From contig CAVTYO010000017.1 in NCBI GenBank assembly GCA_963738915.1, positions 73,070 through 137,069 of the forward strand: a DNA stretch of 64,000 nt, in the 5' to 3' direction. This DNA is from an uncultured Alphaproteobacteria bacterium (GTDB taxonomy: Bacteria > Pseudomonadota > Alphaproteobacteria > Rhizobiales > Xanthobacteraceae). Shown one piece after another: positions 7,371-64,000 of this stretch. The stretch's first letter is position 1, and every line of letters starts with the position of its first letter. The position numbers and the translations under genes are program-made. The notes under the pieces are model-generated. The model was not told the origin of the DNA. It saw nothing but the letters and a program-made list of their open reading frames with translations, and ran no database searches.

Positions 7371-9247
<1,877 letters not shown>

Positions 9248-9251
9248 GGAC

Positions 9252-9500
9252 ATGCGCTCCAACCTCGTCGTATTCCTGCTGATCGGGCTCCTGGTCGGGG
9301 CACTCGCCGGCTACCTGACGCGGCCGGAAGCGGCAGAGATCAAGCTCGGGCCGTTGAGCATCGAGGTGAAGGGAAACCAGGTCGCGCATGACAACGGGCC
9401 TTTGACCTCGAGCCAGACGCAGCATATTGCAATCATTACGGCGATCGGCGGCGCCATCGGGTTGGGCCTGGGGTTTGCGATGAGCAGGAAACAGGGCTGA
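9252..9500 (+). CDS. Small hypothetical membrane protein (82 aa, two predicted TM helices) between atpD and atpC
   Basis: The ATG at 9252 lies 4 nt after the atpD stop. Hydrophobic segments are LVVFLLIGLLVGALAGYL and IAIITAIGGAIGLGLGFAM. It ends 8 nt before atpC. I recognise no family. Confidence 0.5.
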   Translation: MRSNLVVFLLIGLLVGALAGYLTRPEAAEIKLGPLSIEVKGNQVAHDNGPLTSSQTQHIAIITAIGGAIGLGLGFAMSRKQG

Positions 9501-9508
9501 CTTAAACC

Positions 9509-9919
9509 ATGGCCGATTTTCATTTCGAACTGGTATCGCCTGAAAAACTGGTGTTTTCCGGAGAGGTCGAACAGGTCGACGTGCCCGGCGCCGAAGGCGA
9601 TTTCGGCGTGCTCGCGGGCCACGCGCCCTACGTGACGACGCTGCGGCCCGGCATCCTCACAGTGCACGGTTCGGGCGGCACGCAGAAGATCGTCGTGCTC
9701 GGCGGCTTCGCCGAGGTGTCGGCGTCAGGCCTGACCGTGCTCGCCGAAGTGGCCGAGGCGGTCGAGGACATCGACCGCGATATGATCGCAACCCGCATCG
9801 GCGAAATGGAAAGCCGCATCGAGAAAATGCAGCCGGGCAACGCGCTCGACAAGCTGATCATGCGGCTCGACCACTTCAAGGCCGTGGATCGGCATTTGAC
9901 GGGTACGGCGGCGCACTGA
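9509..9919 (+). CDS. atpC: F1 ATP synthase subunit epsilon
   Basis: 136 aa. [40 protein letters not shown] is typical of AtpC. Confidence 0.9.
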
Positions 9920-13222: not shown

Positions 13223-14529
13223 CCGCGAACCTTTTCACCTTCGCCAGATGCCCACCATGGGCCTGGATCGACGGGAATCCCGTCTTTTCGAAATTCAACG
13301 TAGAGCACCGGTTGGCTGGAACCAGTCGCGAGGATCGAGGCGATATGGGAGCCGTTTCCCATCACCGCAACGGGTTCTCCGGCCAGCACGAACTGTCCGA
13401 GATCAACTGATATCCGTTCCATCCCAGCGAGCAAGATATGATAGCCGCCGCCGGCATTCAGGATCAAGAGTTGGCCATAAGAGCGGAACGGCCCGGCGTA
13501 AACAACCCAACCGTCGCAGGGCGCGGTAACCTGCGCACCGGCGCGGGTCGCAACGGATAGACCCTTTTCCGAACCGCCGAGGCCGTCGGGCGCCCCGTAA
13601 TCCTTGATTTTGACGCCATTAACCGGAATCGGAACTTGTCCACGCAATGACGCAAAAGTTACGGCCGGCGCGAGCCGTCCGGGATCGCGGAACGCAGACA
13701 GCGCCGGGCGGCTGTCGCTGCGCGCGGCCTCGCGGGCGGCGCGGATGGCCGGGTCGAGACCCTGTTCGAGTTTGGCGATCAAGTCCTTGAGGTTGTCGAC
13801 CTGTTTGGCGAGGTCGGCGGCGCGCGTGCGTTCGGCGTCGAGCGCCTTTTCGCGCTCGGCCTGCTGTTTTTGCCGCTCCCCGATCAACGCGGTCATGCGC
13901 GTGCGCTGCTCGTCGAGTGAGGCGACTTCCTTGCGCAGGCGATCGCGCTCCTCGGCGATCTTCTTGCGCACGCCGACCAGTTCGGTGAGGTCGCTCGCCA
14001 GCGCATCGACCTGCTGACGCATTTCCGGGAGCACCGCGCCGAGCAGCATGGCGGTGCGCACGGTCTGCAGCGCGTCCTCCGGGCTCGAGATCAGCGCCGG
14101 CGGCGGCCGGTGGCCAATCCGCTGCAGCGCTGCCAGCACTTCCCCGATCACGGCGCGGCGCCCGTCCAGCGACTTGCGGATGCTCGCCTCGTTATCGTCG
14201 AGCGGAGCGAGCCGGGCCTCGGTCGCCGCGATCTTGGCCTCGAACTCGCGTGAGTGCGTGGCGGTGTCGATCAGTTTCTGACTGAGCTTGCGGCGGTCGG
14301 CGCCGATCTCCTCGATCTCGCGCTTGAGGGCGGCTTCGGCATCGGCTGATTTACGCTGGGCCTCGCGGCTGCTGCTGAGTTCCTGGTCGCGCTGCTGCAG
14401 GTTCGCCGGAACCGCATTTTGCGCCGCCGTCCGATTCTGCAGCGCGGCAGTCAGCGCAAAGGGCAACGCCAGACCAAGCGCCAGCGCCGATCGCGAGCTG
14501 AAGCGGCCAAAACCGCCGGGGCAAATCAT
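13219..14529 (-). CDS. EnvC-like murein hydrolase activator (coiled coil + M23/LytM domain)
   Basis: Signal peptide, long coiled-coil region and a C-terminal LytM-like domain (GLSVATRAGAQVTAPCDGWVVYAGPFRSYGQLLILNAGGGYHILLAGM). ATG 14529 is preferred over TTG 14538. It overlaps the ctpA start by 4 nt. Confidence 0.8.
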   Translation of the reverse strand: MICPGGFGRFSSRSALALGLALPFALTAALQNRTAAQNAVPANLQQRDQELSSSREAQRKSADAEAALKREIEEIGADRRKLSQKLIDTATHSREFEAKIAATEARLAPLDDNEASIRKSLDGRRAVIGEVLAALQRIGHRPPPALISSPEDALQTVRTAMLLGAVLPEMRQQVDALASDLTELVGVRKKIAEERDRLRKEVASLDEQRTRMTALIGERQKQQAEREKALDAERTRAADLAKQVDNLKDLIAKLEQGLDPAIRAAREAARSDSRPALSAFRDPGRLAPAVTFASLRGQVPIPVNGVKIKDYGAPDGLGGSEKGLSVATRAGAQVTAPCDGWVVYAGPFRSYGQLLILNAGGGYHILLAGMERISVDLGQFVLAGEPVAVMGNGSHIASILATGSSQPVLYVEFRKDGIPVDPGPWWASGEGEKVRG

Positions 14530-37370: not shown

Positions 37371-37460
37371 GGAGAGGTGGCTGAGCGGTTGAAAGCACCG
37401 CACTCGAAATGCGGCATACGGGCAACCGTATCGGGGGTTCGAATCCCTCCCTCTCCGCCA
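37371..37460 (+). tRNA. tRNA-Ser (anticodon CGA)
   Basis: A 90-nt cloverleaf folded by eye: acceptor GGAGAGG/CCTCTCC, anticodon stem CCGCA/TGCGG with loop CTCGAAA, long variable arm, T-loop GGTTCGAATCC, encoded CCA. Confidence 0.92.
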
Positions 37461-49553: not shown

Positions 49554-51050
49554 TCAAATACGCCGCAGCGGGTTGGTCAGCGCCAGGAAAAAGCCCCCGG
49601 TGGTGAACACCGCCATGGCCAGAAAGGCGGCGCTGAACGCCTGGCGGATATCGGCCTGGACCGCCGCCTGCGCGACCGTCAGCGCCGGCGCCATCTGGCG
49701 GCTCTGGATCGTGGCGGCGAAGACGTGCGCCGCCTCCGGACTTTTGATCGTGAGCACGCCGAACAGAATGGTGGCGACCAGCGCGGTGCCGAAGGCGGCG
49801 CCGATCGAGCGCGAGAACTGCACCGAGGCCGCCGCTTCGCCCAGCCGCGCCTGGCCGGCGGCGCTTTGCACGCTGACCTGCACGACGCCCATCACCGTGC
49901 CCATGAACAGTCCGCTGAGCAGCATGATGATCGCAAACTGAGTGGCGCTGAGGTCCGATGCCCAGACCGCAAGAATAATGAAAATGACGGTGGCGAACGC
50001 CAGACCGCCGATCGGGTAAACCGTGGTCAATCCGGTCTTGCTCACCAGCCGCCCGGTCACCAGCGACCCGGCGCCGATGCCGATAGTCAGCGGCACCAGC
50101 AGCAGGCCGGTGTCCGACGGCGTAAAACCGCGCACCACTTCGAGGTAGATCGGAAGAAACGTGATCAGCGAGACCAGCGCTGCGCCGTGGCAGGCGGCGA
50201 GCGCGTCGCTGTGCCAGATCGCCGGCTGGCGCAACAGTTTCAGCGGGATCAGCGGCGACGCGGCACGGCTCTCATGGCGCACCAGCAGCGCGACGGCGAT
50301 CAGCGCCAACACAAACAGCGCGCCGCCCACCGGCAGCGCCGCGACCTCGACGTGCTGGATCTGTTCGAGCGCCAGCAGCGTCGTCGTCACGAAGATGGTG
50401 AAGTAAAGCAGGCCGCCGGGGTCGGCGCGCCAAGGCACGCGCTCGACGGCGGGATTGGGCAGCCGCCACGTCAGCGCCAGGGCGCCGAGCCCGATCGGCA
50501 CGTTGATGAGGAATATCGACGGCCAGCCGAAATGTTCGGTCAGGTAGCCGCCGGCGACCGGGCCGAAGCTGTTGGCGCAGACCGCGACCGCGGCGAGGTA
50601 GCCCTGATAGCGCGCTCGCTCGCGCGGAGGAATCGTTTCGCCGACCAGCGCCTGCGACAGCGTCATCAGGCCGCCGCCGCCGAGCCCTTGCAGCACCCGC
50701 GCCAGCGTCAAAAGCTCAATCGTGGGCGCCGCGGCGCAGAGCACCGAGGCGACGATGAAAAGCGGCAGCGCGTAGAACATCAGCCGGCGGCGGCCGAATG
50801 AATCGCCGAGGCGGCCGTAGATCGGCGCCGCGATGGTCGCGGCGATGAGATAGGCGACGACGACCCAGGAGGCGCGCTCGACTTCGCCGGTCCCTGCCGC
50901 AATCGCCGGCAGCGCCGTGGCGACGATGGTCTGGTCGACCACGGCCAGAAACATCGGCAGCATGATCGAGGGAAAGATCGTCAGGAAGGCGGGAGATTTT
51001 CCGGGCGCGGGCGGCGAGGGTTTTGTGCTGTGGTCGGCCCGGTTCGGCAA
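49554..51050 (-). CDS. MFS transporter, DHA2 (14-TM, EmrB/QacA-like)
   Basis: MFLAVVDQTIVATALPAI motif and 14 hydrophobic segments. The ORF runs to 51182 but then overlaps the USP gene by 100 nt. TTG 51050 is a possible start; the start is uncertain. Confidence 0.75.
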   Translation of the reverse strand: MPNRADHSTKPSPPAPGKSPAFLTIFPSIMLPMFLAVVDQTIVATALPAIAAGTGEVERASWVVVAYLIAATIAAPIYGRLGDSFGRRRLMFYALPLFIVASVLCAAAPTIELLTLARVLQGLGGGGLMTLSQALVGETIPPRERARYQGYLAAVAVCANSFGPVAGGYLTEHFGWPSIFLINVPIGLGALALTWRLPNPAVERVPWRADPGGLLYFTIFVTTTLLALEQIQHVEVAALPVGGALFVLALIAVALLVRHESRAASPLIPLKLLRQPAIWHSDALAACHGAALVSLITFLPIYLEVVRGFTPSDTGLLLVPLTIGIGAGSLVTGRLVSKTGLTTVYPIGGLAFATVIFIILAVWASDLSATQFAIIMLLSGLFMGTVMGVVQVSVQSAAGQARLGEAAASVQFSRSIGAAFGTALVATILFGVLTIKSPEAAHVFAATIQSRQMAPALTVAQAAVQADIRQAFSAAFLAMAVFTTGGFFLALTNPLRRI

Positions 51051-51082
51051 AGCTGGAAAAGTCCCGATGGTACGTTTGACGC

Positions 51083-51913
51083 CTAGTGCGCCATCAAGAC
51101 CGGCAAAGTGGCGTTGGCAAGGATGTGCCGTGTGGCGCCGCCGAAAATCATCTGCCGCAGGCGGCTCTGGGTATAGGCGCATTTGACCAGCAGGTCGCAG
51201 CCGAGGGAAGCCGCGTGCTCGAGAACGATCTCTCCGGGAGAGCGCGTCCGCGGCTTGACCGTTATGGCGTCGGCCTTGATGCCGTTGCGGCGCAGATGAT
51301 GCGCCGCCTCCTCGCCGGACGGTCCGGGCACGATTCCGCCCTCGACCATCAGCACCGTGACCTTGTCGGCCTTGTGCAGCAGCGGCAGCGCAAAGGCATT
51401 GGTGCGCGCCTGCTGGGTGCTGCGGTTCCAGTGGATGAGAATGTTGCGGCCGATGCTCTTGGGCACCACCGCCGGCACGATCAGCACCGGGCGGCCGCAG
51501 TCGAACAGCGCGATCTCCAGCGGCGGCGTGCGCGGATTCTGCGGATCGGGTCCGGGCCGCCCGAGCGCGATCAGGTCGAAGACGCGTCCATGGCTGCCGA
51601 TGAAGCTGTCTTCCTCGGGGTCTTCGCGCGGCCAGCTGTAAGAAAAGACCGCCGGCTCCTTCTCCGCTTGCGGCACCTTGTGGCGCTGCATGAAGCTTTC
51701 AAACAGGGTGCGGGCCTGCCGCGCCGAGTCGCCCTCGTAGGCGCCGGAGATGGCGAGGCTGCTCACCGGCTCGACGGTCACGTAGCTCGCGGGCGAAGGG
51801 CGGACGGCGAAACCTTCCATGTAGCTGCCGAAAGCCTGCGCCACGAGGCGCGCGCCTTCCAGCACCGCCGGCATGGCGTCATGATCCTCGGTTGGGATCA
51901 AAATGGTCTTCAT
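51083..51913 (-). CDS. Universal stress protein, tandem UspA domains
   Basis: ATG 51913 (MKTILIPTEDHD) and the C-terminal USP ATP-binding-like motif (LLVKCAYTQSRLRQMIFGGATRHIL). Confidence 0.8.
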   Translation of the reverse strand: MKTILIPTEDHDAMPAVLEGARLVAQAFGSYMEGFAVRPSPASYVTVEPVSSLAISGAYEGDSARQARTLFESFMQRHKVPQAEKEPAVFSYSWPREDPEEDSFIGSHGRVFDLIALGRPGPDPQNPRTPPLEIALFDCGRPVLIVPAVVPKSIGRNILIHWNRSTQQARTNAFALPLLHKADKVTVLMVEGGIVPGPSGEEAAHHLRRNGIKADAITVKPRTRSPGEIVLEHAASLGCDLLVKCAYTQSRLRQMIFGGATRHILANATLPVLMAH

Positions 51914-51997
51914 GGCAAACCCGGTCGAAACGGAGAGCAATGACTGCCGTTACATATTATAGTGTCCCAGCGCCGGGACCTAGCGCGATCTCGCGCG

Positions 51998-52222
51998 TCA
52001 GCGCTTGCGGATGCGAAAGCTGAGCACGCCATCGGCTTCAGCCTTGTTTTCGAGAATGTCGCCGGTCTGCCGCAGCAGATTGGGAATATCGATCGCGGTG
52101 AGCGGGTCGGTGCATTCGATGCTGAGCACGTCACCGCTGGTCATGCCGGCGAGCGCCTTGCGCGCGCGCAGCGCCGGCAGCGGGCATTTGAGGCCGCGCA
52201 GGCTCATCGCTTTTTCCGTCAT
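51998..52222 (-). CDS. tusA: TusA/SirA-family sulfurtransferase
   Basis: 74 aa with the diagnostic LKCPLP (CPxP) motif near the N-terminus. Confidence 0.8.
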   Translation of the reverse strand: MTEKAMSLRGLKCPLPALRARKALAGMTSGDVLSIECTDPLTAIDIPNLLRQTGDILENKAEADGVLSFRIRKR

Positions 52223-52298
52223 GCCGCGCCTTTATTGGCCGGTTGGCCGCTTCAGGTGTTGAGGTAGACTGAATTATCGGGACGTCACAAGGTCAAGC

Positions 52299-53414
52299 AT
52301 GGCCACCACGATCGACAGCAGTCAGGCAATTTCGCGGCTCACGCCGCTGGCCGAGGTTCTGGCCATGGCGGACGCCGGCGTCAAACCGGTGGCGCCGCGC
52401 ACGATCGACGTTGCCGTAGCCGCGGGGCGTACGCTCGCCGGCGACGCCGTGGTCCACGCCCGGCCCAATGCCGCAACCGCCTTGGCCGACGGCTGGGCGA
52501 TGAACGCGGACGAGACGCAGGGCGCCGGCAGCTACGCGCCTGTGCAGCTCATGCGGACGCCGCAGCGCGTCGAAACCGGGCAGCCGATGCCGCCCGACAC
52601 CGATGGCGTGGCGCCGTTTGACGCGGTGAGGCTTGGCCGTGATCGCGCCGAAGCGCTCAGCCCGGTCAATCCAGGTGCGAGCGTCCTGCCGGCTGGCGGC
52701 GATTGCGACCCGGCGATTCCCTTGCGCCGCACCGGCGAGCGATTGCGTCTGACCGACCTTGCGGCTTTTGCCGGCGCCGGCCTTGCCCGCATCAGCGTGC
52801 GCGAGCCGCGCATCCACGTCCTTCCCGTGCGCGGCAACGCCATCATCAACGCCACGGCGCGGCTGGTGGCTGGTGACATCGAACGCAACGGCGGCGCGCC
52901 GCGGATCGAGACCGGCCGCGATCTCAAGCTGGCGTTTGCTGCGGACAGTCCCGACGGCATCGTCGTCATCGGCGGCACCGGCAGCGGCCGCAACGACACC
53001 AGCGCGCAGTTGCTGGCGCGCGAGGGCAGGCTTGCCGTGCACGGTATCGCGATCACGCCGGGGGAGACCGCGGCCCTCGGATTTGTCGGGTCGCGCCCGG
53101 TGCTGCTGCTGCCGGGGCGGCTCGATGGCGCGCTCGCGGTCTGGCTGACCATCGGCCGGCGTCTGCTGGCGCGTCTTGCCGGCGGCGACGACAGTGAACC
53201 GGCGGCGAACGTCAAACTTGCGCGCAAGGTTTCCTCGCCGCTCGGCCTTACCGAATTCGTCCCGGTGCGCCGCAGCGGCGATACCGCCGAACCGCTGGCG
53301 GCGAAATATCTGCCGTTCTCGACGCTGGCGCGCGCCGACGGCTGGATTCTTGTGCCGGCCGGCAGCGAGGGCTATTCGGAAGGCGCGACAGTGGCGGTGA
53401 GGCCGTGGCCGTAA
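52299..53414 (+). CDS. Degenerate MoeA-like protein (MoeA domain order retained, catalytic motifs eroded)
   Basis: 371 aa, collinear with MoeA: DGWAM for DG(F/Y)A(L/V)R, GGTGSGRND for GG(V/T)SxGxxD, LLPGRLDGA for LPGNPV. The (S/T)TGDE(L/V) motif is missing. Confidence 0.65.
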   Translation: MATTIDSSQAISRLTPLAEVLAMADAGVKPVAPRTIDVAVAAGRTLAGDAVVHARPNAATALADGWAMNADETQGAGSYAPVQLMRTPQRVETGQPMPPDTDGVAPFDAVRLGRDRAEALSPVNPGASVLPAGGDCDPAIPLRRTGERLRLTDLAAFAGAGLARISVREPRIHVLPVRGNAIINATARLVAGDIERNGGAPRIETGRDLKLAFAADSPDGIVVIGGTGSGRNDTSAQLLAREGRLAVHGIAITPGETAALGFVGSRPVLLLPGRLDGALAVWLTIGRRLLARLAGGDDSEPAANVKLARKVSSPLGLTEFVPVRRSGDTAEPLAAKYLPFSTLARADGWILVPAGSEGYSEGATVAVRPWP

Positions 53415-53435
53415 AAAGAAGAATGTGACGCTTGT

Positions 53436-55427
53436 ATGAGCGGTGAGCAAAAGGCCCCTGCCCAGGCCGAGAGCGATCTGATCGCGCGGGTGCGAGCGGC
53501 GGCGCGGCAGGAGCAGTTCCTCGAGGCCGTTTCGGCGGAGGAAGCGCGCGCGCGTTTCGAGCGGCACCTCGATCTGACGCCGCTTGCCGGCGAGGAGGTG
53601 GCGCTTGCCGATGCGCTCAACCGCGCGCTTGCCGCGGATGTCGTGGCGGCGGTCGATGCGCCGCCGTTCGACCGCTCCAACGTCGACGGCTTTGCGTTGC
53701 GCGCGGCCGACAGCACAGGCGCAAGCGACGTCGCGCCGAAGCGGCTGACGCTCAACGTCGAAGTGATCGCCTGCGGCCATGCGCCCAAGATCGAAGTTGC
53801 GCCGGGCACCGTGACCGCCATCGCCACCGGTGGCGTGCTGCCGCGTGGCGCCGACGCGGTCATCATGATCGAGCATACCGAGCTGCTGGATGGTCCGGCG
53901 CCGGCCATCGAGTTGCGCCGCACGATCCGATCCGGACAGTTCATCTCTTACGCGGGCTCCGACATCGCCCGCGGCGAAACCTTGCTGCGGCGGGGAACGC
54001 GCATCGGTTCGCGCGAAATCGGCATGCTTGCGGCAAGCGGGCTGGGGCGCGTCAGTGTCGTGCGGCGGCCGAAAGTGGCGGTGCTGTCGACCGGTGATGA
54101 ATTGGTGGCGCCGGGACAGCCGCTGAAGCCGGCGGGCGTCTACGACAGCAACGGCGCCATCATCGCCGCGGCGGTTGTCGAAGCCGGCGGCGAGCCGATA
54201 TCGATGGGCGCATTTCCCGACGACGAGGCCGTGCTGGAAAAAGCCGCGCGCGCAGCCCTGTCGGTCAGCGACATGGTGGTGCTTTCCGGCGGCACGTCGA
54301 AGGGCGCCGGAGATTTGTCGCATGCAGTCGTCGCAAAACTCGGCGCGCCGGGCATTCTGGTGCATGGCGTCGCACTCAAGCCGGGCAAGCCGCTCTGCCT
54401 CGGTGTTGTCGGCGACAAGCCGATCGTGGTGCTGCCGGGGTTTCCGACCTCGGCAATCTTTACCTTCCACGCCTTCGCCGCGCCGGTCATCCGCGCCCGC
54501 GCCGGCCTGCCGCCGGAAGCGGCTAAAACGGTCGCTGCGCATGTTCCTCTGCGCATCGCGTCCGAACTCGGCCGCAAGGAATTCGTGCTGGTCTCATTGG
54601 TCGCTGCGCCCGGCGGCACGCTGGCATTCCCGACCGACAAGGGCTCCGGCTCGGTGACCAGCTTTTCCCAGGCCGACGGGTTCATCGAAATCGACGCGCT
54701 GGCCAATGCGCTCGACGCCGATTCGGACGTCCACGTGACGCTGATCGGCAGCGCCGCGCGCGCGCCCGATCTCATCATCGTGGGTAGCCACGATATCGCC
54801 CTCGATGTCGTGGTCGGCGCGCTTTCCCAGCGCGGCGTCTCGGCACGCACGCTTGCCGTCGGCAGCCTCGGCGGCGTTGCAGCGGCAAGCCGCGGCCAAT
54901 GCGACATCGCGCCGGTGCATCTGATCAATTCTGTCACGGCCAAATACAATGTGCATCTGGTAACGCCGGCCTTGAGTCTGGTGCGCGGCTGGCAGCGCAT
55001 GCAGGGCGTTCTCTTCCGTCCAGGCGACGTGCGCTTTGCCGGACGCAGCGCGCGCGAGGCGCTGAAGATAGTGCTGGCCGATACATCCGCGCTGATGGTC
55101 AACCGCAATGCCGGTGCCGGGACACGGGTGCTCATCGACAAGTTGCTGGAGGGCGCCCGGCCTCCCGGCTATGCCAATCAGCCGAAGTCGCATAACGCCG
55201 TCGCCGCCGCGATCGCGCAAGGCCGCGCCGATTGGGGCGTCGCCATCGAGCCAGTGGCGAAACTCTACGGGCTCGGCTTTTTGCCGGTGGCGCCGGAACA
55301 ATATGACTTCCTCGTGGTCGAGAGCCGCCGCGAGCGGGCGCCGGTGCAGGCGTTTCTCGAAACCTTGCGCGATCCGGCGACGCGCGCGCGTATCGCCGCG
55401 CTCGGCATGCAGCCCTCCGATGGCTGA
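53436..55427 (+). CDS. MoeA-family molybdopterin molybdotransferase fused to a C-terminal PBP-like (oxyanion-binding type) domain
   Basis: 663 aa. MoeA motifs: FDRSNVDGFALR, VLSTGDELVAPG, LSGGTSKGAGD, VLPGFPTSA. A ~240-aa type-2 binding-protein-like domain follows (IVGSHDIALDVV..NRNAGAGTRVL..ADWGVAIEPVA). Confidence 0.8.
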   Translation: MSGEQKAPAQAESDLIARVRAAARQEQFLEAVSAEEARARFERHLDLTPLAGEEVALADALNRALAADVVAAVDAPPFDRSNVDGFALRAADSTGASDVAPKRLTLNVEVIACGHAPKIEVAPGTVTAIATGGVLPRGADAVIMIEHTELLDGPAPAIELRRTIRSGQFISYAGSDIARGETLLRRGTRIGSREIGMLAASGLGRVSVVRRPKVAVLSTGDELVAPGQPLKPAGVYDSNGAIIAAAVVEAGGEPISMGAFPDDEAVLEKAARAALSVSDMVVLSGGTSKGAGDLSHAVVAKLGAPGILVHGVALKPGKPLCLGVVGDKPIVVLPGFPTSAIFTFHAFAAPVIRARAGLPPEAAKTVAAHVPLRIASELGRKEFVLVSLVAAPGGTLAFPTDKGSGSVTSFSQADGFIEIDALANALDADSDVHVTLIGSAARAPDLIIVGSHDIALDVVVGALSQRGVSARTLAVGSLGGVAAASRGQCDIAPVHLINSVTAKYNVHLVTPALSLVRGWQRMQGVLFRPGDVRFAGRSAREALKIVLADTSALMVNRNAGAGTRVLIDKLLEGARPPGYANQPKSHNAVAAAIAQGRADWGVAIEPVAKLYGLGFLPVAPEQYDFLVVESRRERAPVQAFLETLRDPATRARIAALGMQPSDG

Positions 55428-55517
55428 CGTAAGAGCAATGTGGACCAAACGCACGCAGGGTCAGGCGGCCGCACCGTGCTATATGACATCGCGGGACCTT
55501 CGAGGACGTCGGTTTCT

Positions 55518-56048
55518 ATGAGCACCATGCGCATCGTCGGCCTCGCCGGCTGGAGCGGTTCGGGCAAGACCACGTTGATCACCAAGGCGATCCCGCGCCT
55601 CATCGCGCGCGGCGTGCACGTCTCGACGATCAAGCATGCGCATCACGGCTTCGACATGGATCAGCCGGGCAAGGATTCCTTCATGCACCGGGCCGCTGGC
55701 GCGACCGAAGTGGCGATTTCCTCGGCTAATCGCTGGGCCGTTCTGCGCGAACTGCGCGGCGAGCCGGAATGGAATCTGGCCGGGCTGCTCGCCAAGCTGT
55801 CGCCGGTCGATATCGTGCTGGTCGAGGGCTTCAAGCGCGACCGGATGGTCCCGAAGGTTGAAATCTTCCGTGCCGCCAACGGCAAGCCGCTGCTGCATCC
55901 GGAGGACCCGAGCATCGCGGCGATTGCCGCCGATGGTCCGATCGCGGCCGCGACCGTTCCGGTGGTCAATCTCAACGACATCGAAGCCGTGGTCGATGTG
56001 CTGCTCAAATATGCCGTGCCGGTCAGTGCGGCGTTGCGAGGCGGCTGA
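55518..56048 (+). CDS. mobB: Molybdopterin-guanine dinucleotide biosynthesis adapter protein MobB
   Basis: ATG 55518. P-loop GWSGSGKTTL, HHGFDMDQPGKDS, VLVEGFK. Confidence 0.88.
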   Translation: MSTMRIVGLAGWSGSGKTTLITKAIPRLIARGVHVSTIKHAHHGFDMDQPGKDSFMHRAAGATEVAISSANRWAVLRELRGEPEWNLAGLLAKLSPVDIVLVEGFKRDRMVPKVEIFRAANGKPLLHPEDPSIAAIAADGPIAAATVPVVNLNDIEAVVDVLLKYAVPVSAALRGG

Positions 56049-57322
56049 TGGCGCAACTGAGCGACGATTGTTTCGCCTTTTCCGGTTCGCTGCTGCCGCT
56101 CGCCGACATGGAGCGGCTGATCGGCGAGCGCGTCGCGCCGGTCGGCGAGACCGAGCGGGTGCCGTTGCGCGCCGCGCGCGGGCGCGTCACCGCAGCCGAC
56201 ATCAAGGCGCCGATCGATTTGCCGCCGTTCGACAACTCGGCGGTCGACGGCTACGCCCTGCGCCACGCCGACCTCAAGGCCAAGGCGGACAGCAGCCTTG
56301 CAATCGCCGGCCGCCTGACCGCCGGCCAGCGCCCGGACATTGCGCTAAAGCCGGGTGAAGCCATCCGGATTTTCACCGGCGCGGCAATGCCGGCAGGGGC
56401 CGATACCGTGTTCATGCAGGAAGACGTGCGCCTAGAGGGCGATCGCGTCATTGTGCCGAGCGGCCTCACGCGCGGCGCCAACCGTCGCCTTGCCGGCGAA
56501 GACGCGGCTAAAGGCGCGGTCGTGCTGCCGGCCGGAACGGTGCTTGAGGCGCAGCACATTGCGCTTGCGGCGGCGCTCGGCATCACCGAACTCGAAGTGC
56601 GCCGGCGGCTCAAGGTCGCGATCTTTTCCACCGGTGATGAGGTGGTCGAGCCGGGCACGCCGCGCGGCAGCGCGGCGATCTACGACGCCAACCGCTATCT
56701 GCTGGCCGCATTGCTGGAGCGGCTAGACGCGCAGGTTACCGACCTCGGCATTCTCGGCGACGATCCGGCGGAACTGGCGCGCGCGCTTGGCGAGGCCGCC
56801 GCCGGCCACGATTTGGTCATTACCTCGGGGGGCGTGTCCGCCGGAGAAGCCGACCATGTACGCAGCGCGGTCGAGCGCATCGGCAGCCTGGTATTCTGGC
56901 GCGTCGCTATCAAGCCGGGACGGCCGGTCGCCATGGGTGTGATCCGCGGCGCCACCAATCTCGATAGCCCTGCCTTCGTCGGCCTGCCGGGAAATCCGGT
57001 TGCCGTCTTCGTGACCTTTGTGCGCGTGGTCAAGCCGCTGCTGCGGCGCCTCGGCGGCGCCCGGGCGCAGCACCTGATTCCGCTGCAGGTGCGCGCCGCC
57101 TTCGCCTACCGTAAAAAGAAAGATCGTCGCGAATACGTGCGGGTCGCCCTGCGGCGCGGCGCCGACGGCGAAATCGAGGCGGTGAAGCACCCCCAGGATG
57201 GCGCCGGAATATTGATGTCGCTGACAGAGACCGACGGGCTGCTCGAATTTGCCGAAGACGTGACCGGGATAGAGCCCGGCGAGCGCGTGGGCTTTTTGTC
57301 TTACGCCGCGCTCACCAGCTAG
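56048..57322 (+). CDS. moeA: Molybdopterin molybdotransferase MoeA (canonical copy)
   Basis: 424 aa. FDNSAVDGYALR, IFSTGDEVVEPG, TSGGVSAGEADH, GLPGNPVAV. Its start overlaps the mobB stop (TGATG). Confidence 0.9.
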   Translation: MAQLSDDCFAFSGSLLPLADMERLIGERVAPVGETERVPLRAARGRVTAADIKAPIDLPPFDNSAVDGYALRHADLKAKADSSLAIAGRLTAGQRPDIALKPGEAIRIFTGAAMPAGADTVFMQEDVRLEGDRVIVPSGLTRGANRRLAGEDAAKGAVVLPAGTVLEAQHIALAAALGITELEVRRRLKVAIFSTGDEVVEPGTPRGSAAIYDANRYLLAALLERLDAQVTDLGILGDDPAELARALGEAAAGHDLVITSGGVSAGEADHVRSAVERIGSLVFWRVAIKPGRPVAMGVIRGATNLDSPAFVGLPGNPVAVFVTFVRVVKPLLRRLGGARAQHLIPLQVRAAFAYRKKKDRREYVRVALRRGADGEIEAVKHPQDGAGILMSLTETDGLLEFAEDVTGIEPGERVGFLSYAALTS

Positions 57323-57960
57323 CCGCCTTGCGCCTGCAGCGCAATGCGTGCCGCGCGCTCGGCGTCTTCCGGCGTGTTCACGTTGAAGAAGGGGTCGACC
57401 GGTTCGGCCGGCCAGTCGGCAATGGCGACGCCATGCTGCGCCGTCCACGCCTCGATCTTGCGCAGATTGTCTTCGACTAGCGACTTGCGCAGGCTGTCGC
57501 GCAGCGCCAGCGGCCACAAGCCGACGACCGGATGGCGCCATTCGCCGGAGCGGGCGCAGGCCAGCGGCACGCCGGCGCCCATCTTGCGTCGGGCCATGTG
57601 CAGACGCTCGACCAGATCGTCGGGCAGGAACGGGCAATCGCCCGGCACGCTGAGGACCCATTCGACGCCGTTGTCCTGCTTCGCCAGCCAATCGAGGCCG
57701 GCGAGAATGCCGGCCAGCGGCCCGGCAAAGCCGGGCACATTGTCGGGCACGACTTCCAGCCCGGTGTCGGCGAAGCGTTCGGGGTCGCCGTTGGCGTTGA
57801 TGATGATGCCGGTGCACTGCGCCGAGAGCGTCGCCAGCACCCGGTCGAGAATGCTGATGCCGCCGATCTCAAGCCGCGCCTTGTCGCCGCCGCCCATGCG
57901 GCGCGCGAGGCCGCCGGCAAGCACGAGCCCGAGTGTGGGAGGAATTGGGATGTCAGCCAC
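57319..57960 (-). CDS. mobA: Molybdenum cofactor guanylyltransferase MobA
   Basis: GTG start. LVLAGGLARRMGGGDK and PGDCPFLP motifs. It is convergent with moeA and shares a CTAG stop overlap. Confidence 0.88.
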   Translation of the reverse strand: MADIPIPPTLGLVLAGGLARRMGGGDKARLEIGGISILDRVLATLSAQCTGIIINANGDPERFADTGLEVVPDNVPGFAGPLAGILAGLDWLAKQDNGVEWVLSVPGDCPFLPDDLVERLHMARRKMGAGVPLACARSGEWRHPVVGLWPLALRDSLRKSLVEDNLRKIEAWTAQHGVAIADWPAEPVDPFFNVNTPEDAERAARIALQAQGG

Positions 57961-57968
57961 AGTGCGTC

Positions 57969-58070
57969 GTCATTCCGGGGCGCGAGTTAAAGCGAGCGAA
58001 CCCGAAATCCAGACACGCCCACGTTCGTCTCTGGATTCCGGCTCCGCGCTGACGCGCGTCCCGGAATGAC
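57969..58070. repeat. ~100-bp nested imperfect palindrome (REP/MITE-like intergenic element)
   Basis: The outer arms gtcattccggggcgcg (57969-57984) and cgcgtcccggaatgac (58055-58070) have 1 mismatch. The inner arms are cccgaaatccaga and tctggattccgg. Confidence 0.6.
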
Positions 58071-58078
58071 AGAGTGGA

Positions 58079-58963
58079 TTACTCATCATGCATCGCGGCT
58101 TTGCGCCGGTGCTTTGAGCTTTCCTCCTCGACATAGGCAAGGTCCTGGTCGAAGACGATGCGGTCCTCGCCGGCAAGCGCGACAAAGCGTTTGCCGCGGG
58201 CGCGGCCGATCAGCGTCAGGTTGGCCTTGCGCGCGAGTTCCACACCCCACGCTGTAAATCCGGAACGTGAGATCAGGATAGGGATGCCCATGCGCACGGT
58301 CTTGATCACCATCTCCGAAGTGAGGCGGCCGGTGGTGTAGAAAATCTTGTCGGACGGCGACACCTTTTCCTTGAACATCCAGCCGGCGATCTTGTCCACC
58401 GCGTTATGGCGGCCGACGTCTTCCATATAGACGAGCGGCTTGTCCTCGTGCGCCAGAACGCAGCCGTGGATGGCGCCGGCTTCGAGATAAAGCGACGGCG
58501 TGGTGTTGATCACATTGGTCAGCTTGTAGAGCCAGGAGGTGCGCAAGCTCGCCTTGGGCAATTGCACGCCTTCCAGCGCTTCCATCAGGTCGCCGAACAC
58601 GGTGCCCTGCGCGCAACCAGAGGTCTGCACCTTCTTCTTCAGCTTCTTCTCGTAATCGGTCTTGCGCTTTGTGCGCACCACCACAACCGCGAGTTCCTCG
58701 TCGTAATCGACGCCGGTGACCACGTCGTCGGGCAACAGCATATTCTGGTTGAGCAGATAGCCGATCGCCAGATAGTCCGGATAATCGCCGATGGTCATGG
58801 CGGTGACGATTTCCTGCGAGTTGAGGAAAATCGTCAGCGCCCGCTCGACCGTGACCGAGGTCTCGATCCGGCTGCCGGCCTGGTCGATGCCGCTGACGCG
58901 CTCGGTCAGCCGCGGGTCGGCCGGGTTGGGGCGGATGATGTAGCCGTCGGTTTTTTTATCCAC
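58079..58963 (-). CDS. fdhD: Formate dehydrogenase accessory sulfurtransferase FdhD/FdsC family, copy 1
   Basis: 294 aa. The active-loop Cys is in TSGCAQG. GGIHGCVL-like AGAIHGCVL and EDVGRHNAVDK are typical of FdhD. Confidence 0.9.
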   Translation of the reverse strand: MDKKTDGYIIRPNPADPRLTERVSGIDQAGSRIETSVTVERALTIFLNSQEIVTAMTIGDYPDYLAIGYLLNQNMLLPDDVVTGVDYDEELAVVVVRTKRKTDYEKKLKKKVQTSGCAQGTVFGDLMEALEGVQLPKASLRTSWLYKLTNVINTTPSLYLEAGAIHGCVLAHEDKPLVYMEDVGRHNAVDKIAGWMFKEKVSPSDKIFYTTGRLTSEMVIKTVRMGIPILISRSGFTAWGVELARKANLTLIGRARGKRFVALAGEDRIVFDQDLAYVEEESSKHRRKAAMHDE

Positions 58964-59778
58964 GTTTTTGTCCAGAAATTTTGCCTGGCGAAACTATAGC
59001 AGACCTTGCCGCCCACTGCCGAATGCGGGCGCGGGTGGGCAAAAAGCCGCGGCACACACGAATTCCCTGCGCCGCGCTTTCCCCGCTAATATGGTGATCA
59101 AGATAACGGGCCGCAAAGGCCTGTATTTATTCGGGAGGTTGCCAATGTATCGCGGAACCAAGGACATCATGCTGCCGACCACGGTCACCGGCTCGCTGCC
59201 GCGGCCGAGCTGGTACACGGAAAATCTCGGCAGCAAACATTTCCTCGAAGCCATGGTGTCGCGCCGCTTCCGCGAGCAATACGAGGATGCGCTCACCTGC
59301 TACCTGCGCGACCAGGAGATTGCCGGGCTCGACATCGTCACCGACGGCGACTGCCGCTTCGACGACGATGTCGGCGGCCAGAGCTGGACGGCATACCCGC
59401 CGAACCACATGACCGGCCTCGACGTCGAGCATCAGGTGCCGACGCCGGCGGGCCGCGGCGGGGTCTGGTTTCCGCGCGGTCACATTCTGCACGATTATCT
59501 GGAGTCGCGGGTGATGCCGGTGATCACCGGCCCGGTCGGCCGCGGCAATCTGCAATACACGGCGATGTGGAAGGCGGCGCAGCGCTTCACCGAGAAGCCG
59601 GTGAAATTCGGCGCGGTGTCGGCGGAGATCGTCGCCTTCGCGTTGCAGGACCGCCACTACAAGAGCATCCCCGACCGCATGCTCGCCTTCGCCGACGCCT
59701 TCAACGAGGAATACAACGAACTCGCCGACGCCGGCTGCCCGGTGATCCAGATCGAGGAGCCGCAGATCCACATGATCG
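58094..59778. repeat. Direct repeat, copy 1 (at least 1685 bp; partner at +4222)
   Basis: My base-by-base comparison with 62316..64000 found 12 substitutions and no indels. Confidence 0.95.
58964..59144. promoter_or_regulatory. Divergent fdhD / MetE-like control region (duplicated at 63186..63366)
   Basis: A 181-nt gap between divergent starts, GC-rich with several hairpins (gcccac..gtgggc; ggcc gcaaa ggcc). GGGAGG lies 7 nt before ATG 59145. Promoters were not resolved. Confidence 0.35.
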
Positions 59779-60329
59779 CGGCGCGCAAGGTGCAGGACAA
59801 GGTGATCACGCCGCAATTCATCGTCGAGGTGTTCAACCGCACGGTCAAGGGCCTGCGCGCCAAGACCGAGGTCTGGGCGCATTCCTGCTGGGGCAATCCG
59901 TCGCAGCAGAAGATGTTCGCCAAGGACATCAGCTACAAGCCGTCGCTCGAGACCTACAACACGGTGGACGCCGACGTCATCACCTTCGAGGCGGCAAGCT
60001 CCGGCTACATGGACCTCGAAGCCATCGGCAAGACCATCGTCGGAAAGAAAATCGCCATCGGCGTCATCGACCACCACACGCTGCAAGTGGAAAATCCCGA
60101 GGACGTCGCCGCCGCCATTCGCAACGCGCTAAAATGGATTCCGCCCGAGCGGCTGGTGATTTCGTCGGATTGCGGCATGGGCCGCGAGGGCATGAGCCGC
60201 CGCCACGCCTTCTACAAGATGGTGTCGCTGGTGCTCGGCACCAACATCGTGCGCAAGGAGCTTGGCTTCCCCGAGGCCAAGTGTCTCGCCGCCGACGAGC
60301 GCTACTCGCTGGTGGTGCCGGTCAAGTGA
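59145..60329 (+). CDS. MetE-C-terminal-domain-like (Meth_synt_2 family) zinc-dependent thiol alkyl/methyltransferase, copy 1
   Basis: 394 aa. PTTVTGSLPRPSW is a MetE-like N-terminus. The Zn-ligand pattern is H-x-C (WAHSCWGN), Glu (ITFEAAS) and Cys (ISSDCGMG). Confidence 0.8.
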   Translation: MYRGTKDIMLPTTVTGSLPRPSWYTENLGSKHFLEAMVSRRFREQYEDALTCYLRDQEIAGLDIVTDGDCRFDDDVGGQSWTAYPPNHMTGLDVEHQVPTPAGRGGVWFPRGHILHDYLESRVMPVITGPVGRGNLQYTAMWKAAQRFTEKPVKFGAVSAEIVAFALQDRHYKSIPDRMLAFADAFNEEYNELADAGCPVIQIEEPQIHMIAARKVQDKVITPQFIVEVFNRTVKGLRAKTEVWAHSCWGNPSQQKMFAKDISYKPSLETYNTVDADVITFEAASSGYMDLEAIGKTIVGKKIAIGVIDHHTLQVENPEDVAAAIRNALKWIPPERLVISSDCGMGREGMSRRHAFYKMVSLVLGTNIVRKELGFPEAKCLAADERYSLVVPVK

Positions 60330-60388
60330 GCCTGCAGCGCTCATCCTGACGCGCTCGACCGCGGGCACAACGCCGGCGCGACGGCCAA

Positions 60389-61414
60389 CTAGCCTCTGCC
60401 CGCCAGTATGCGGTCGATCTGCGCACCGTTGGGGGTCACGCGGTAGAACTTCGTGTAGAAGTCGCGCGTCAGCTCGCGCATGTCTTCCTTGAACAACTCG
60501 GGATAGAAAATCTTCCCCAGCCACCACAGCCCGATCAGCCGGTTGACCGACGGCGGGGAATCGACCCAGCCGAACGGCAACTTCGGCGACAGGTGTACCC
60601 GGTTGTTCTTCACCGCGGCGACCGAAGCCCAGGCCGGATTGATGCGTACGTCAGCCGCGAAATCCTGATCGACGGTGACGATGACGTCCGGGTTCCACAG
60701 CAGCACTTGTTCGACCGGGACATTGGCGAGCCCGCCTTTGCGCTCGCCGGCGACGTTGCGCGCCAGAAGCTCGATGGTCTCGACATCGATCGAGCCGCCA
60801 AGCCCGGTGGTGAGGCCGCGCGGACCGCGCGCGTAATACACCCGCGGGCGTTTTTCCGCCGGCACGAAGGCAATGCGGTTGGTGATGACGCCGAGCGTCA
60901 TGTTGCAATAGTCGGCAAAGTCGGCGCCTTCGCCCTCGCGGCCGATCAGCCTGCCGAGCTTCTCATAGCTTGTGGACAGCGAGAGAAAACGTCCATCCAG
61001 CAGAGCGTAGGGGATGCCGGTTTCCTCTTGCAGCCGGTTCGCCTGCGTGACGAAGAGGTCGCTGGTCGAGCCGACATCGACGATCAGGTCGGGTTGCAGC
61101 GCGATGACGCTTTCGAGGTTCGGCGTGTTGCCGCGGCCGGTGAGGCGCCCGACTTCGGGCCGCGCGCAGATTTCCGGCAGCATGAATTCGCACTCTTCCG
61201 GCCGGTTGGCGCGCGGCCAGCCCAGCAGCAACTCCGGCGCCAGCGTGTAAAGCAGGATGGCGGCGGGCAGTCCGGCGGGAAGGACGCGCCTGACCGGCGA
61301 GCGGATCGCAAGCGTGCGCCCGGTATCGTCGGCGGCAGTTGCCGCGCGGGCAAGGCGCGGCGCCAGCAGCGCGGCCGAGGCGGTGGTGACCAGTGTGCGG
61401 CGGGTGAGGGGCAT
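60389..61414 (-). CDS. Periplasmic binding protein, Peripla_BP_2 (FecB/BtuF-like) family, Tat/Sec-exported
   Basis: TRRTLVTTASAALLAP leader. LQPDLIVDVGS and NPDVIVT motifs typical of cluster-A siderophore/cobalamin-type binding proteins. Confidence 0.72.
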   Translation of the reverse strand: MPLTRRTLVTTASAALLAPRLARAATAADDTGRTLAIRSPVRRVLPAGLPAAILLYTLAPELLLGWPRANRPEECEFMLPEICARPEVGRLTGRGNTPNLESVIALQPDLIVDVGSTSDLFVTQANRLQEETGIPYALLDGRFLSLSTSYEKLGRLIGREGEGADFADYCNMTLGVITNRIAFVPAEKRPRVYYARGPRGLTTGLGGSIDVETIELLARNVAGERKGGLANVPVEQVLLWNPDVIVTVDQDFAADVRINPAWASVAAVKNNRVHLSPKLPFGWVDSPPSVNRLIGLWWLGKIFYPELFKEDMRELTRDFYTKFYRVTPNGAQIDRILAGRG

Positions 61415-61464
61415 GACGGCAACTATACACCGTCATCGTCGGCTTTTTGGCACTTGCGCGCCGC

Positions 61465-62295
61465 TCAGGCCTCCGTGTCACTCGCGTTGGGATAGAACAA
61501 CTGCTCGCCGTTGATCTTGTAATTGGCGATGTCCTTCTGCCCTTCCGGCGAGACCAGATAATCGATGAACTGCTGGCCGAGTTCGTTCTTCACGTTCGGG
61601 TGCTTTTCCGGGTTGACCAGCATGACGCCGTATTGATTGAACATGCGCTTGTCGCCCTCCACCACGATTGCGAGGTCGCCCTTGTTCTTGAAGTGAATCC
61701 AGGTGCCGCGATCGGACAGCACGTAGGCGTTGCTGGCGCCGGCAGTGTTGAGCGCCGCGCCCATGCCCTGGCCGATCGCCTTGTACCAAGGCCCTTTATC
61801 CTTCTCGATATCGATGCCGGCATCCTTCCAGAGGTTGAGCTCGGCGATATTGGTGCCTGATTTGTCGCCGCGCGAAATGAAATCGGCCTTCTTGTCTTTG
61901 ATGGTCTGGAATGCCTTGGCCACGTCCTTCATGCCCTTGATGCCGGCGGGGTCGCTCTTCGGTCCGATCAGCACGAAGTCGTTGTACATCACCGGATAAC
62001 GCTTCACGCCCTGGCCCTCGGCGAGGAATTTTTCTTCAGCCGATTTTGCGTGCACGAACACGACGTCGGCGTCGCCGCGACGGCCGGTGTCGAGCGCCTG
62101 GCCCGTGCCCTGCGCTACCACCTTGACGGCGATGCCGGTCTTTTTGGTGAATAGCGGCAGCAGGTATTCGAACAGGCCGGAATCCTGCGTCGAGGTGGTC
62201 GAGGCGACCACGATCGATTTGTCTTGAGCCAATGCGGGTGCTGTGGATAGCGCCGCGCAAAGCGTGGCGGCAAGCAGAAGGCGACGAGTGAACAT
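61465..62295 (-). CDS. tupA: TupA-like tungstate/molybdate-type ABC substrate-binding protein (PBP_like_2)
   Basis: ATG 62295 is preceded by GGAGG. Signal peptide, and the motif VASTTSTQDSGL typical of TupA-family oxyanion binders. The longer ORF to 62472 runs into fdhD copy 2. Confidence 0.72.
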   Translation of the reverse strand: MFTRRLLLAATLCAALSTAPALAQDKSIVVASTTSTQDSGLFEYLLPLFTKKTGIAVKVVAQGTGQALDTGRRGDADVVFVHAKSAEEKFLAEGQGVKRYPVMYNDFVLIGPKSDPAGIKGMKDVAKAFQTIKDKKADFISRGDKSGTNIAELNLWKDAGIDIEKDKGPWYKAIGQGMGAALNTAGASNAYVLSDRGTWIHFKNKGDLAIVVEGDKRMFNQYGVMLVNPEKHPNVKNELGQQFIDYLVSPEGQKDIANYKINGEQLFYPNASDTEA

Positions 62296-62312
62296 ACGGT
62301 CCTCCGTTATTG

Positions 62313-63185
62313 TCACGCGGCTTTGCGCCGGTGCTTTGAGCTTTCCTCCTCGACATAGGCAAGGTCCTGGTCGAAGACGATGCGGTCCTCGCCGGCAAGC
62401 GCGACAAAGCGTTTGCCGCGGGCGCGGCCGATCAGCGTCAGGTTGGCCTTGCGCGCGAGTTCCACACCCCACGCTGTAAATCCGGAACGTGAGATCAGGA
62501 TAGGGATGCCCATGCGCACGGTCTTGATCACCATCTCCGAAGTGAGGCGGCCGGTGGTGTAGAAAATCTTGTCGGACGGCGACACCTTTTCCTTGAACAT
62601 CCAGCCGGCGATCTTGTCCACCGCATTATGGCGGCCGACGTCTTCCATATAGACGAGCGGCTTGTCCTCGTGCGCCAGAACGCAGCCGTGGATGGCGCCG
62701 GCTTCGAGATAAAGCGACGGCGTGGTGTTGATCACATTGGTCAGCTTGTAGAGCCAGGAGGTGCGCAAGCTCGCCTTGGGCAATTGCACGCCTTCCAGCG
62801 CTTCCATCAGGTCGCCGAACACGGTGCCCTGCGCGCAACCAGAGGTCTGCACCTTCTTCTTCAGCTTCTTCTCGTAATCAGTCTTGCGCTTTGTGCGCAC
62901 CACCACAACCGCGAGTTCCTCGTCGTAATCGACGCCGGTGACCACGTCGTCGGGCAACAGCATATTCTGGTTGAGCAGATAGCCGATCGCCAGATAGTCC
63001 GGATAATCGCCGATGGTCATGGCGGTGACGATTTCCTGCGAGTTGAGGAAAATCGTCAGAGCCCGCTCGACCGTGACCGAGGTCTCGATCCGGCTGCCAG
63101 CCTGGTCGATGCCGCTGACGCGTTCGGTCAGCCGCGGGTCGGCCGGGTTGGGGCGGATGATGTAGCCGTCGGTTTTTTTGTCCAC
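62313..63185 (-). CDS. fdhD: FdhD/FdsC-family sulfurtransferase, copy 2 (identical protein except for loss of the last four residues MHDE)
   Basis: 290 aa. It has six nucleotide differences from copy 1, all synonymous. Its stop codon comes from the duplication junction. Confidence 0.9.
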   Translation of the reverse strand: MDKKTDGYIIRPNPADPRLTERVSGIDQAGSRIETSVTVERALTIFLNSQEIVTAMTIGDYPDYLAIGYLLNQNMLLPDDVVTGVDYDEELAVVVVRTKRKTDYEKKLKKKVQTSGCAQGTVFGDLMEALEGVQLPKASLRTSWLYKLTNVINTTPSLYLEAGAIHGCVLAHEDKPLVYMEDVGRHNAVDKIAGWMFKEKVSPSDKIFYTTGRLTSEMVIKTVRMGIPILISRSGFTAWGVELARKANLTLIGRARGKRFVALAGEDRIVFDQDLAYVEEESSKHRRKAA

Positions 63186-64000
63186 GTTTTTGTCCAGAAA
63201 TTTTACCTGGCGAAACTATAGCAGACCTTGCCGCCCACTGCCGAATGCGGGCGCGGGTGGGCAAAAAGCCGCGGCACACACGAATTCCCTGCGCCGCGCT
63301 TTCCCCGCTAATATGGTGATCAAGATAACGGGCCGCAAAGGCCTGTATTTATTCGGGAGGTTGCCAATGTATCGCGGAACCAAGGACATCATGCTGCCGA
63401 CCACGGTCACCGGCTCGTTGCCGCGGCCGAGCTGGTACACGGAAAATCTCGGCAGCAAACATTTCCTCGAAGCCATGGTGTCGCGCCGCTTCCGCGAGCA
63501 ATACGAGGATGCGCTCACCTGCTACCTGCGCGACCAGGAGATTGCCGGGCTCGACGTCGTCACCGACGGCGACTGCCGATTCGACGACGATGTCGGCGGC
63601 CAGAGCTGGACGGCATACCCGCCGAACCACATGACCGGCCTCGACGTCGAGCATCAGGTGCCGACGCCGGCGGGCCGCGGCGGGGTCTGGTTTCCGCGCG
63701 GTCACATTCTGCACGATTATCTGGAGTCGCGGGTGATGCCGGTGATCACCGGCCCGGTCGGCCGCGGCAATCTGCAATACACGGCGATGTGGAAGGCGGC
63801 GCAGCGCTTCACCGAGAAGCCGGTGAAATTCGGCGCGGTGTCGGCGGAGATCGTCGCCTTCGCATTGCAGGACCGCCACTACAAGAGCATCCCCGACCGT
63901 ATGCTCGCCTTCGCCGACGCCTTCAACGAGGAATACAACGAACTCGCCGACGCCGGCTGCCCGGTGATCCAGATCGAGGAGCCGCAGATCCACATGATCG
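62316..64000. repeat. Direct repeat, copy 2 (runs to the window edge)
   Basis: Identity with 58094..59778 starts exactly at 62316. Position 62315 (a) differs from 58093 (t). Confidence 0.95.
63367..64000 (+). CDS. MetE-like zinc thiol alkyl/methyltransferase, copy 2 (5' part; continues beyond the window)
   Basis: Over the 634 nt visible it differs from copy 1 at 5 positions: 4 synonymous and 1 Ile-to-Val. Confidence 0.8.
   Translation, partial: MYRGTKDIMLPTTVTGSLPRPSWYTENLGSKHFLEAMVSRRFREQYEDALTCYLRDQEIAGLDVVTDGDCRFDDDVGGQSWTAYPPNHMTGLDVEHQVPTPAGRGGVWFPRGHILHDYLESRVMPVITGPVGRGNLQYTAMWKAAQRFTEKPVKFGAVSAEIVAFALQDRHYKSIPDRMLAFADAFNEEYNELADAGCPVIQIEEPQIHMI

Follow-up and report, generated by a model that had tools for sequence, protein, structure and literature searches.

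A probable head-to-tail duplication of a four-gene fdhD-tupA block, with uneven divergence between its copies, in an uncultured Xanthobacteraceae bacterium

The right-hand end of a 64,000-nt stretch of DNA from an uncultured alphaproteobacterium of the family Xanthobacteraceae (contig CAVTYO010000017.1, positions 73,070 to 137,069; the whole stretch is called the window here) carries a direct repeat. The repeated block holds fdhD, a MetE-like gene transcribed divergently from it, a gene for a Peripla_BP_2 substrate-binding protein (BP2) and tupA, which encodes a TupA-type tungstate-binding protein. Most probably, a 4.2-kb block of four genes has here undergone a genuine head-to-tail duplication. 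We infer the order mobA-[fdhD-metE-like-Peripla_BP_2-tupA]|[fdhD'-metE-like'-Peripla_BP_2'-tupA']-tupC-tupB, in which a prime marks the second copy. Coordinates are positions in the window. Copy 2 is read as DNA only to position 64000, and its continuation is known as database proteins only. At one end the copies are almost the same, whereas at the other they appear to have diverged considerably, and this unevenness bears on how the duplication is to be understood.

The repeat, its ancestral context and the join

Positions 58094-59778 and 62316-64000 (1685 nt each, spaced by 4222) align base by base without a gap and differ at 12 positions, an identity of 99.3%. To the left of 58094 and 62316 similarity falls abruptly to approximately chance level, and there is no other long repeat in the window. 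Six of the differences are in fdhD, all of them synonymous and at third codon positions. One is in the fdhD/metE intergenic region, at 58983. The remaining five are in the visible part of the MetE-like gene, where four are synonymous and one, ATC to GTC, replaces Ile64 with Val. A first-pass annotation of this DNA had reported the same gap-free alignment with 12 differences, and the same classes of ten synonymous changes, one Ile-to-Val and one intergenic. A recount reproduced the former, and going through the changes codon by codon bore out the latter. Given the observed transition bias, a random coding change would be synonymous with a chance of 0.31, and the probability of at least 10 synonymous changes among 11 is 6e-5. 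By the Nei-Gojobori method the visible repeat has dS = 0.029, dN = 0.0009 and dN/dS = 0.03. Derived alleles are present on both sides (seven in copy 2, four in copy 1 and one ambiguous). Over the same 1685 nt, the copies are separated by 12 nt from each other versus 50-86 nt from the nearest relatives.

What did the locus look like before it was duplicated? The comparison set comprised 80 genome loci from a scan with FdhD (among the matches listed) and others, 85 related loci in total. Pseudolabrys-like Xanthobacteraceae found in soil metagenomes are the best relatives, with an FdhD identity of at most 94% among the matches listed, and the closest by DNA (95-97% identity) are the loci L081/L082, L083, L084 and L085. 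Together, these five present the genes as mobA-fdhD-metE-BP2-tupA-tupC-tupB, once each. A second fdhD within 10 kb was found in 0 of the 80 scanned loci, and neither tupA nor BP2 occurs a second time within 10 kb in any relative. Adjacency of fdhD and mobA is kept in nearly all of the 85 loci. The presence or absence of the duplication in related strains had been proposed as a check, and the block is single-copy in all 85.

In the relatives tupA belongs to a tupB-tupC-tupA operon, and in L081, L082, L083 and L085 tupC lies upstream of tupA, unlike in the window. Homology in the ancestral order spans tupA and 20 bp of the tupC-tupA spacer and ends at 62315. The 3' end of fdhD begins at 62316. 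The repeat copies therefore abut in the same orientation, with zero unique DNA between the end of copy 1 and the start of copy 2. The sequence across the join is CCGTTATTGTCACGCGGCTTTGCG. Because copy 2 takes over at the very point where synteny with the ancestral order upstream of tupA breaks off, a single join is enough to explain the whole arrangement. The unit thus delimited contains fdhD without its last five codons (four residues and the stop), the MetE-like gene, the Peripla_BP_2 gene, tupA and the 20 bp upstream of tupA.

Set against an ancestral spacer of the L083 type, the join has no microhomology, and there is no insertion sequence (IS) element or long repeat at the unit ends. Its 24-mer was not found in JGI metagenome contigs. 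In copy 2 a TGA derived from the spacer (62315-62313, minus strand) ends fdhD' right after Ala290, so that the MHDE tail is lost while the entire FdhD/NarQ domain is kept. For the full-length copy 1 protein, relatives align over residues 1-294, and the tail, (V/M/L)HD(E/D), is conserved in the clade. The inner tupA (ATG at 62295, 20 bp from the join) keeps its own GGAGG, 17 nt downstream of the fdhD' stop, and is severed from tupB-tupC. Two other interpretations of the shortened gene were considered and rejected. The TGA is not a former tupC stop codon, as the L083 alignment places it in the tupC-tupA spacer. Nor does the 290-aa FdhD P0383 from a JGI contig represent an independent find of the truncated copy, since it is another protein whose ends are its own.

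These features resemble those of a spontaneous tandem segmental duplication, the first step of gene amplification (PMC11721125): a direct repeat of a few kilobases with a single homology-free join, ends that lack IS elements and long repeats, and a gene brought under a foreign promoter. When bacterial duplications arise spontaneously, their junctions usually show little homology or none (PMC11721125). In the proposed scenario, a single illegitimate recombination, independent of homology, would have fused the tupC-tupA spacer with the 3' end of fdhD. This would have taken place on the source's own lineage, after its split from all sampled relatives, and would have left the native tupB-tupC-tupA'-BP2' operon intact.

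A neighbourhood of tupA and fdhD is also seen elsewhere in the family. In four more distant loci (L009, L019, L038 and L076; for example L009 1625-3385) tupA is the gene immediately upstream of fdhD, in the same orientation, and no MetE-like gene separates the two. The adjacency thus recurs, in the order opposite to that made by the join.

Copy 2 beyond the window and its uneven divergence

All proteins of the window are found in the protein database on the 168,980-bp source contig, from NCBI and ENA, and for each gene of the unit a second variant is listed on a contig of that length and origin (Table 1). One of each pair is encoded by copy 1 or, for FdhD, both are encoded in the window. Over its first 211 residues P0005 is the same as the translated window sequence of copy 2, and the second variants P0005, P0241 and P0133 are not encoded elsewhere in the window. 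A single variant of TupC from the source contig was found (P0394), and neither tupC nor tupB is encoded in the window.

Table 1. Protein variants of the four unit genes on the source contig, and divergence between orthologues
Protein	Copy 1	Copy 2	Difference between copies	Orthologue dN/dS	Orthologue dS
FdhD	P0369 (294 aa)	P0370 (290 aa)	last four residues absent in P0370	0.04	0.16
MetE-like	P0001	P0005	I64V, V321I, L381P	0.04	0.09
Peripla_BP_2	P0361	P0241	9/341 residues, at least 12 nt	0.17-0.21	0.06-0.08
TupA	P0121	P0133	16/276 residues		
TupA				0.10-0.15	0.19

These variants bear on three earlier expectations. It had been asked whether copy 2 stops shortly after 64000. It does not, for the MetE-like' protein is full length at 394 aa (P0005). 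The proposal of a 4222-bp head-to-tail unit at 58094-62315 remains the best reading, on the indirect evidence of two variants of four genes with one tupC found. However, the prediction that near-identity would extend up to about 66537 very probably fails, and many replacements over the full length, which had been named as speaking against the proposal, are indeed present in BP2 and TupA.

How large is this excess? With dS at 0.029 and the orthologue dN/dS, 4.1 replacements would be expected in BP2, compared with at least 12 observed (P = 1e-3), and 2.3 in tupA, compared with at least 16 observed (P = 3e-9). The tupA replacements (at least 16 nt) even exceed the 5.9 differences of all kinds expected at the visible rate (P = 4e-4). 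The protein distance from BP2' and TupA' to copy 1 is that of orthologues from other lineages. The nearest protein to BP2' is still the BP2 of the window, with 9 differences versus 16-19 to others. TupA and TupA' are compatible with being sisters, on branches of about 9 and 7 changes. A metagenome scan with TupA' found nothing closer than 91% among the matches listed.

The positions of the changes are informative. Differences between tupA and tupA' avoid conserved sites, as 5 of 16 fall at sites at least 95% conserved when 72% would be expected (P = 7e-4). Therefore, this is not free decay, and it argues for a deeper divergence at the tupA end. For the nine BP2' substitutions the corresponding avoidance is not significant, a number of changes that gives no power. 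At the same time, TupA' departs from 103 homologues at five sites that are 98-100% conserved (K89Q, Q95E, M122I, H201N and N228S), and orthologues have 0-3 such changes. Copy 1 has the majority state of the relatives at all nine BP2 differences, and all three MetE-like changes, the Leu-to-Pro included, are derived in copy 2. The duplication is therefore a mosaic, near-identical at the fdhD-metE end and diverged at the binding-protein end, and this holds for replacement changes only.

The spectrum of ten synonymous changes to one replacement has to be read in the same light. It had been taken as a sign that both copies have stayed under protein-level constraint since the duplication. The visible fdhD and MetE-like sequence agrees with this as far as its low dN/dS goes. 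However, a 10:1 spectrum is normal for these two genes because their orthologues are just as constrained, and it is not diagnostic because import from, or conversion against, a related allele gives the same spectrum. For BP2 and tupA, with their excess of replacements, the claim does not stand. A more general caution follows, that low dN/dS between copies of highly constrained genes is, alone, no proof of selection since duplication.

Origin, age and possible consequences of the duplication

The duplication would predate what a divergence of 0.7% implies, and its fdhD-metE end would have been reset, either by gene conversion between the copies or by recombination with a related allele. Such a reset is the most likely cause of the mosaic divergence. 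The reason for this preference is that the differences in tupA seem to have been selected against at conserved sites and amount to what separates orthologues. Perhaps, instead, the duplication is real and uniformly young, with about 0.7% divergence throughout and no gene conversion. In that case one copy of each redundant binding-protein gene, or both copies of tupA, would have changed several-fold faster, near-neutrally or under diversifying selection, with fdhD and the MetE-like gene still constrained. This is possible, although we would put it well behind a reset. With dS at 0.029 the minimal dN would be 0.012-0.016 for BP2 and 0.025 for tupA, so dN/dS would be 0.4-0.9 and need not rise above 1. 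The BP2 changes do look derived in copy 2 at every site, as do the MetE-like ones, and the invariant-site substitutions of TupA' are in keeping with such a history. However, the avoidance of conserved sites by the tupA differences means that constraint has acted, long branches on both tupA copies are odd if one still does the job, and the BP2' changes fall at positions whose variability matches that of the positions at which orthologues differ.

Could the arrangement be an assembly artefact, in which two single-copy strains have been strung together or a read is chimeric, and no cell has both copies? The recovered relatives are all metagenome bins or contigs and the source fits a metagenome-assembled genome. 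The join is absent from the other data searched, and BP2' and TupA' differ from copy 1 by as much as orthologues of other lineages do. Nevertheless, an artefact is unlikely. The two sides of the join share no sequence that could lead a graph or overlap assembler to mis-join them. A mixture of strains would give about 4% divergence throughout, not 0.7% over fdhD-metE. A chimeric read would have to unite points 4.2 kb apart in the same orientation with both genes intact, a large coincidence. Less probable still is a dispersed partial copy in which fdhD'-metE' alone came to lie beside tupA, and BP2' and TupA' belong to a separate, older paralogous tup locus elsewhere on the contig. The far greater divergence of BP2' and TupA' than of fdhD' and metE' is what an older paralogous locus would produce, and copy 2 is read as DNA only as far as 64000. 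However, this history needs two novel joins and not one, and no relative supplies the additional tup locus within 10 kb. The affinities of TupA' with TupA and of BP2' with the window BP2 speak for copies of the same genes. Moreover, the window tupA has lost its upstream tupC, so another tupA beside tupC is to be expected.

Head-to-tail duplication followed by a reset is thus the preferred account, and several points weigh against it. The position of BP2', tupA' and tupC next to metE' is inferred from parsimony and from the shared 168,980-bp contig size, and the source itself is probably a metagenome-assembled genome. Loss of 4-kb tandem repeats by RecA is normally quick (PMC11721125), and persistence to a dS of 0.03 or more needs selection or luck. 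Finally, the invariant-site changes of TupA' fit relaxed or shifted selection better than simple age.

If the duplication is real, what might it do? Both fdhD and the MetE-like gene are doubled, and each is accompanied by a copy of the divergent control region. With the inner tupA and BP2 lying 17 nt behind fdhD', the fdhD' promoter most likely drives both of them, and a new transcription unit, fdhD'-tupA-BP2, has probably been created. One can go further and imagine an adaptive rewiring, in which the doubled FdhD and MetE-like genes, and a second TupA/Peripla_BP_2 pair under an fdhD promoter without transporter genes, are maintained while the TupA paralogues diverge in ligand preference. The divergence in preference is proposed because of the five changes at otherwise invariant TupA' sites. 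This reading is unlikely. If true, it would be an early stage of natural divergence after duplication in an uncultured soil bacterium.

The kind of event is well known, and the moderately interesting part is the mosaic divergence. Laboratory and clinical amplifications are young, identical and unstable, unlike the copies described here, between which dS is about 0.03 at one end and 3-6% of residues differ at the other. Such divergence means that the duplication has persisted, and there is evidence of two copies only. Models of the innovation-amplification-divergence type posit divergence after duplication under continued selection. The locus is like these in that reading frames are intact in both copies and some genes are constrained while others gain replacements, as TupA' does at invariant sites. 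It is unlike them in that the replacement excess may reflect a greater age of one end together with conversion of the other. A several-fold change of identity along one unit, from 99.3% to orthologue-level protein divergence, is also what concerted evolution by gene conversion between tandem paralogues brings about, although here any boundary of a conversion tract lies outside the window. If the mosaic holds at the DNA level, it could exemplify either gene conversion over part of the repeat or gene-by-gene differences in selection after duplication. In either case, the locus offers a clear-cut natural case of a small tandem duplication that arose without repeats or IS elements and persisted until it diverged, in a neighbourhood of molybdenum/tungsten cofactor and formate dehydrogenase maturation genes.

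Genes and surroundings of the locus

The features of the locus are collected in Table 2.

Table 2. Features of the duplicated region (window coordinates)
Feature	Position	Strand	Description
mobA	57319-57960	-	unique DNA on the left flank; neighbour of fdhD copy 1 on its downstream side; Pfam NTP_transf_3 E = 4e-35
fdhD copy 1	58079-58963	-	294 aa, full length, end ...KHRRKAAMHDE; Pfam FdhD-NarQ E = 2e-71
Probable duplicated unit, copy 1	58094-62315	.	4222 bp; sharp left repeat edge; right edge is the end of synteny with relatives
Divergent fdhD/MetE-like control region	58964-59144	.	second copy 63186-63366, one difference (58983)
MetE-like copy 1	59145-60329	+	394 aa, single Meth_synt_2 domain; PF01717 E = 2e-28; P0001
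Peripla_BP_2 copy 1 (BP2)	60389-61414	-	substrate-binding protein; PF01497 E = 2e-16; P0361
tupA copy 1	61465-62295	-	276 aa, TupA-type tungstate-binding; PBP_like_2 E = 1e-47; P0121
Join	62313-62318 (between 62315 and 62316)	.	tupA upstream spacer fused to fdhD codon 290
fdhD' copy 2	62313-63185	-	290 aa; same protein minus MHDE; P0370
MetE-like' copy 2	63367-64000+	+	runs past window end; full protein P0005, 394 aa

Both FdhD copies match PF02634 over residues 39-269 with 240.8 bits (cut-off 27.2). FdhD stays below the NCBI equivalog cut-offs (NF001943, 149.7 versus 269 bits; TIGR00129, 131 versus 140.9 bits). Membership of the FdhD/NarQ family is thus clear from these profile scores, which do not certify exact functional equivalence. 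The MetE-like protein scores 99.8 bits against PF01717. True MetE has two domains and about 750 aa, and the protein fails the MetE equivalog (TIGR01371, 81 versus 930 bits) and is below the models for short-form methionine synthases (153 versus 406 and 135 versus 392 bits). By domain count and scores, "MetE-like" is the right label. TupA matches the tungstate-binding protein of PDB entry 3LR1 over residues 27-259 (E = 1e-76) and scores 251.9 bits against NF041772, for which the cut-off is 400.

The MetE-like protein is extraordinarily constrained. It has 0-5 residue differences among the closest lineages, with none to L084 (9094-10278) and three to L081, each at a dS of 0.09. Its divergent pairing with fdhD is present in many, but not all, related loci. 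The most likely start of the gene is the ATG at 59145, which has a GGGAGG ribosome-binding site; a start at 58968, where the long open reading frame begins, was dropped in its favour.

The divergent control region holds a promoter-like site for fdhD on the minus strand (59022-58993 and 63244-63215). In both copies it also holds a GC-rich hairpin on the plus strand, ACGGGCC GCAAA GGCCTGT followed by ATTTATT (59106-59124 and 63328-63346). The hairpin sits about 20 nt before the MetE-like start codon, just ahead of the ribosome-binding site, and may be a leader or attenuator element. A comparison of the duplicated control region with Rfam matched no family, and hence no riboswitch.

Further molybdenum-cofactor genes, including a MoeA-PBP fusion, mobB and moeA, lie 5' of the block. 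G+C content is 0.57-0.65 in the duplicated block (58000-64000), lower than the 0.65-0.71 of the molybdenum-cofactor genes at its left (50000-58000). The fusion (53436-55427, plus strand) is a 663-aa protein that combines a complete MoeA (MoeA_N, MoCF_biosynth, MoeA_C) with a PBP_like domain of the periplasmic-binding type. Beside it (55440-57322) are mobB and a second, ordinary moeA, and the fusion is kept in many relatives at 70-80% identity.

The region to the left of mobB has been swapped between lineages, and identity there is down to 85-87%. In L083 (1590-6211) and L084 (639-5297) a set consisting of an FdnGHI-like molybdopterin oxidoreductase, a ferredoxin and a cytochrome b lies directly upstream of mobB. 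In the window (about 52000-55400) and in L081 (2957-6386), TusA, a MoeA-like protein and the MoeA-PBP fusion are encoded there instead. In L083, an ENA contig, fdhD, tupA and tupC are in pieces or shortened (8936-9819, 12315-12614 and 13172-13633; 77 + 218 aa, 99 aa and 153 aa). These look like frameshift errors of long-read assembly and not true pseudogenes. The sole RNA gene found in the window is a tRNA-Ser (CGA) at 37371-37460 on the plus strand.

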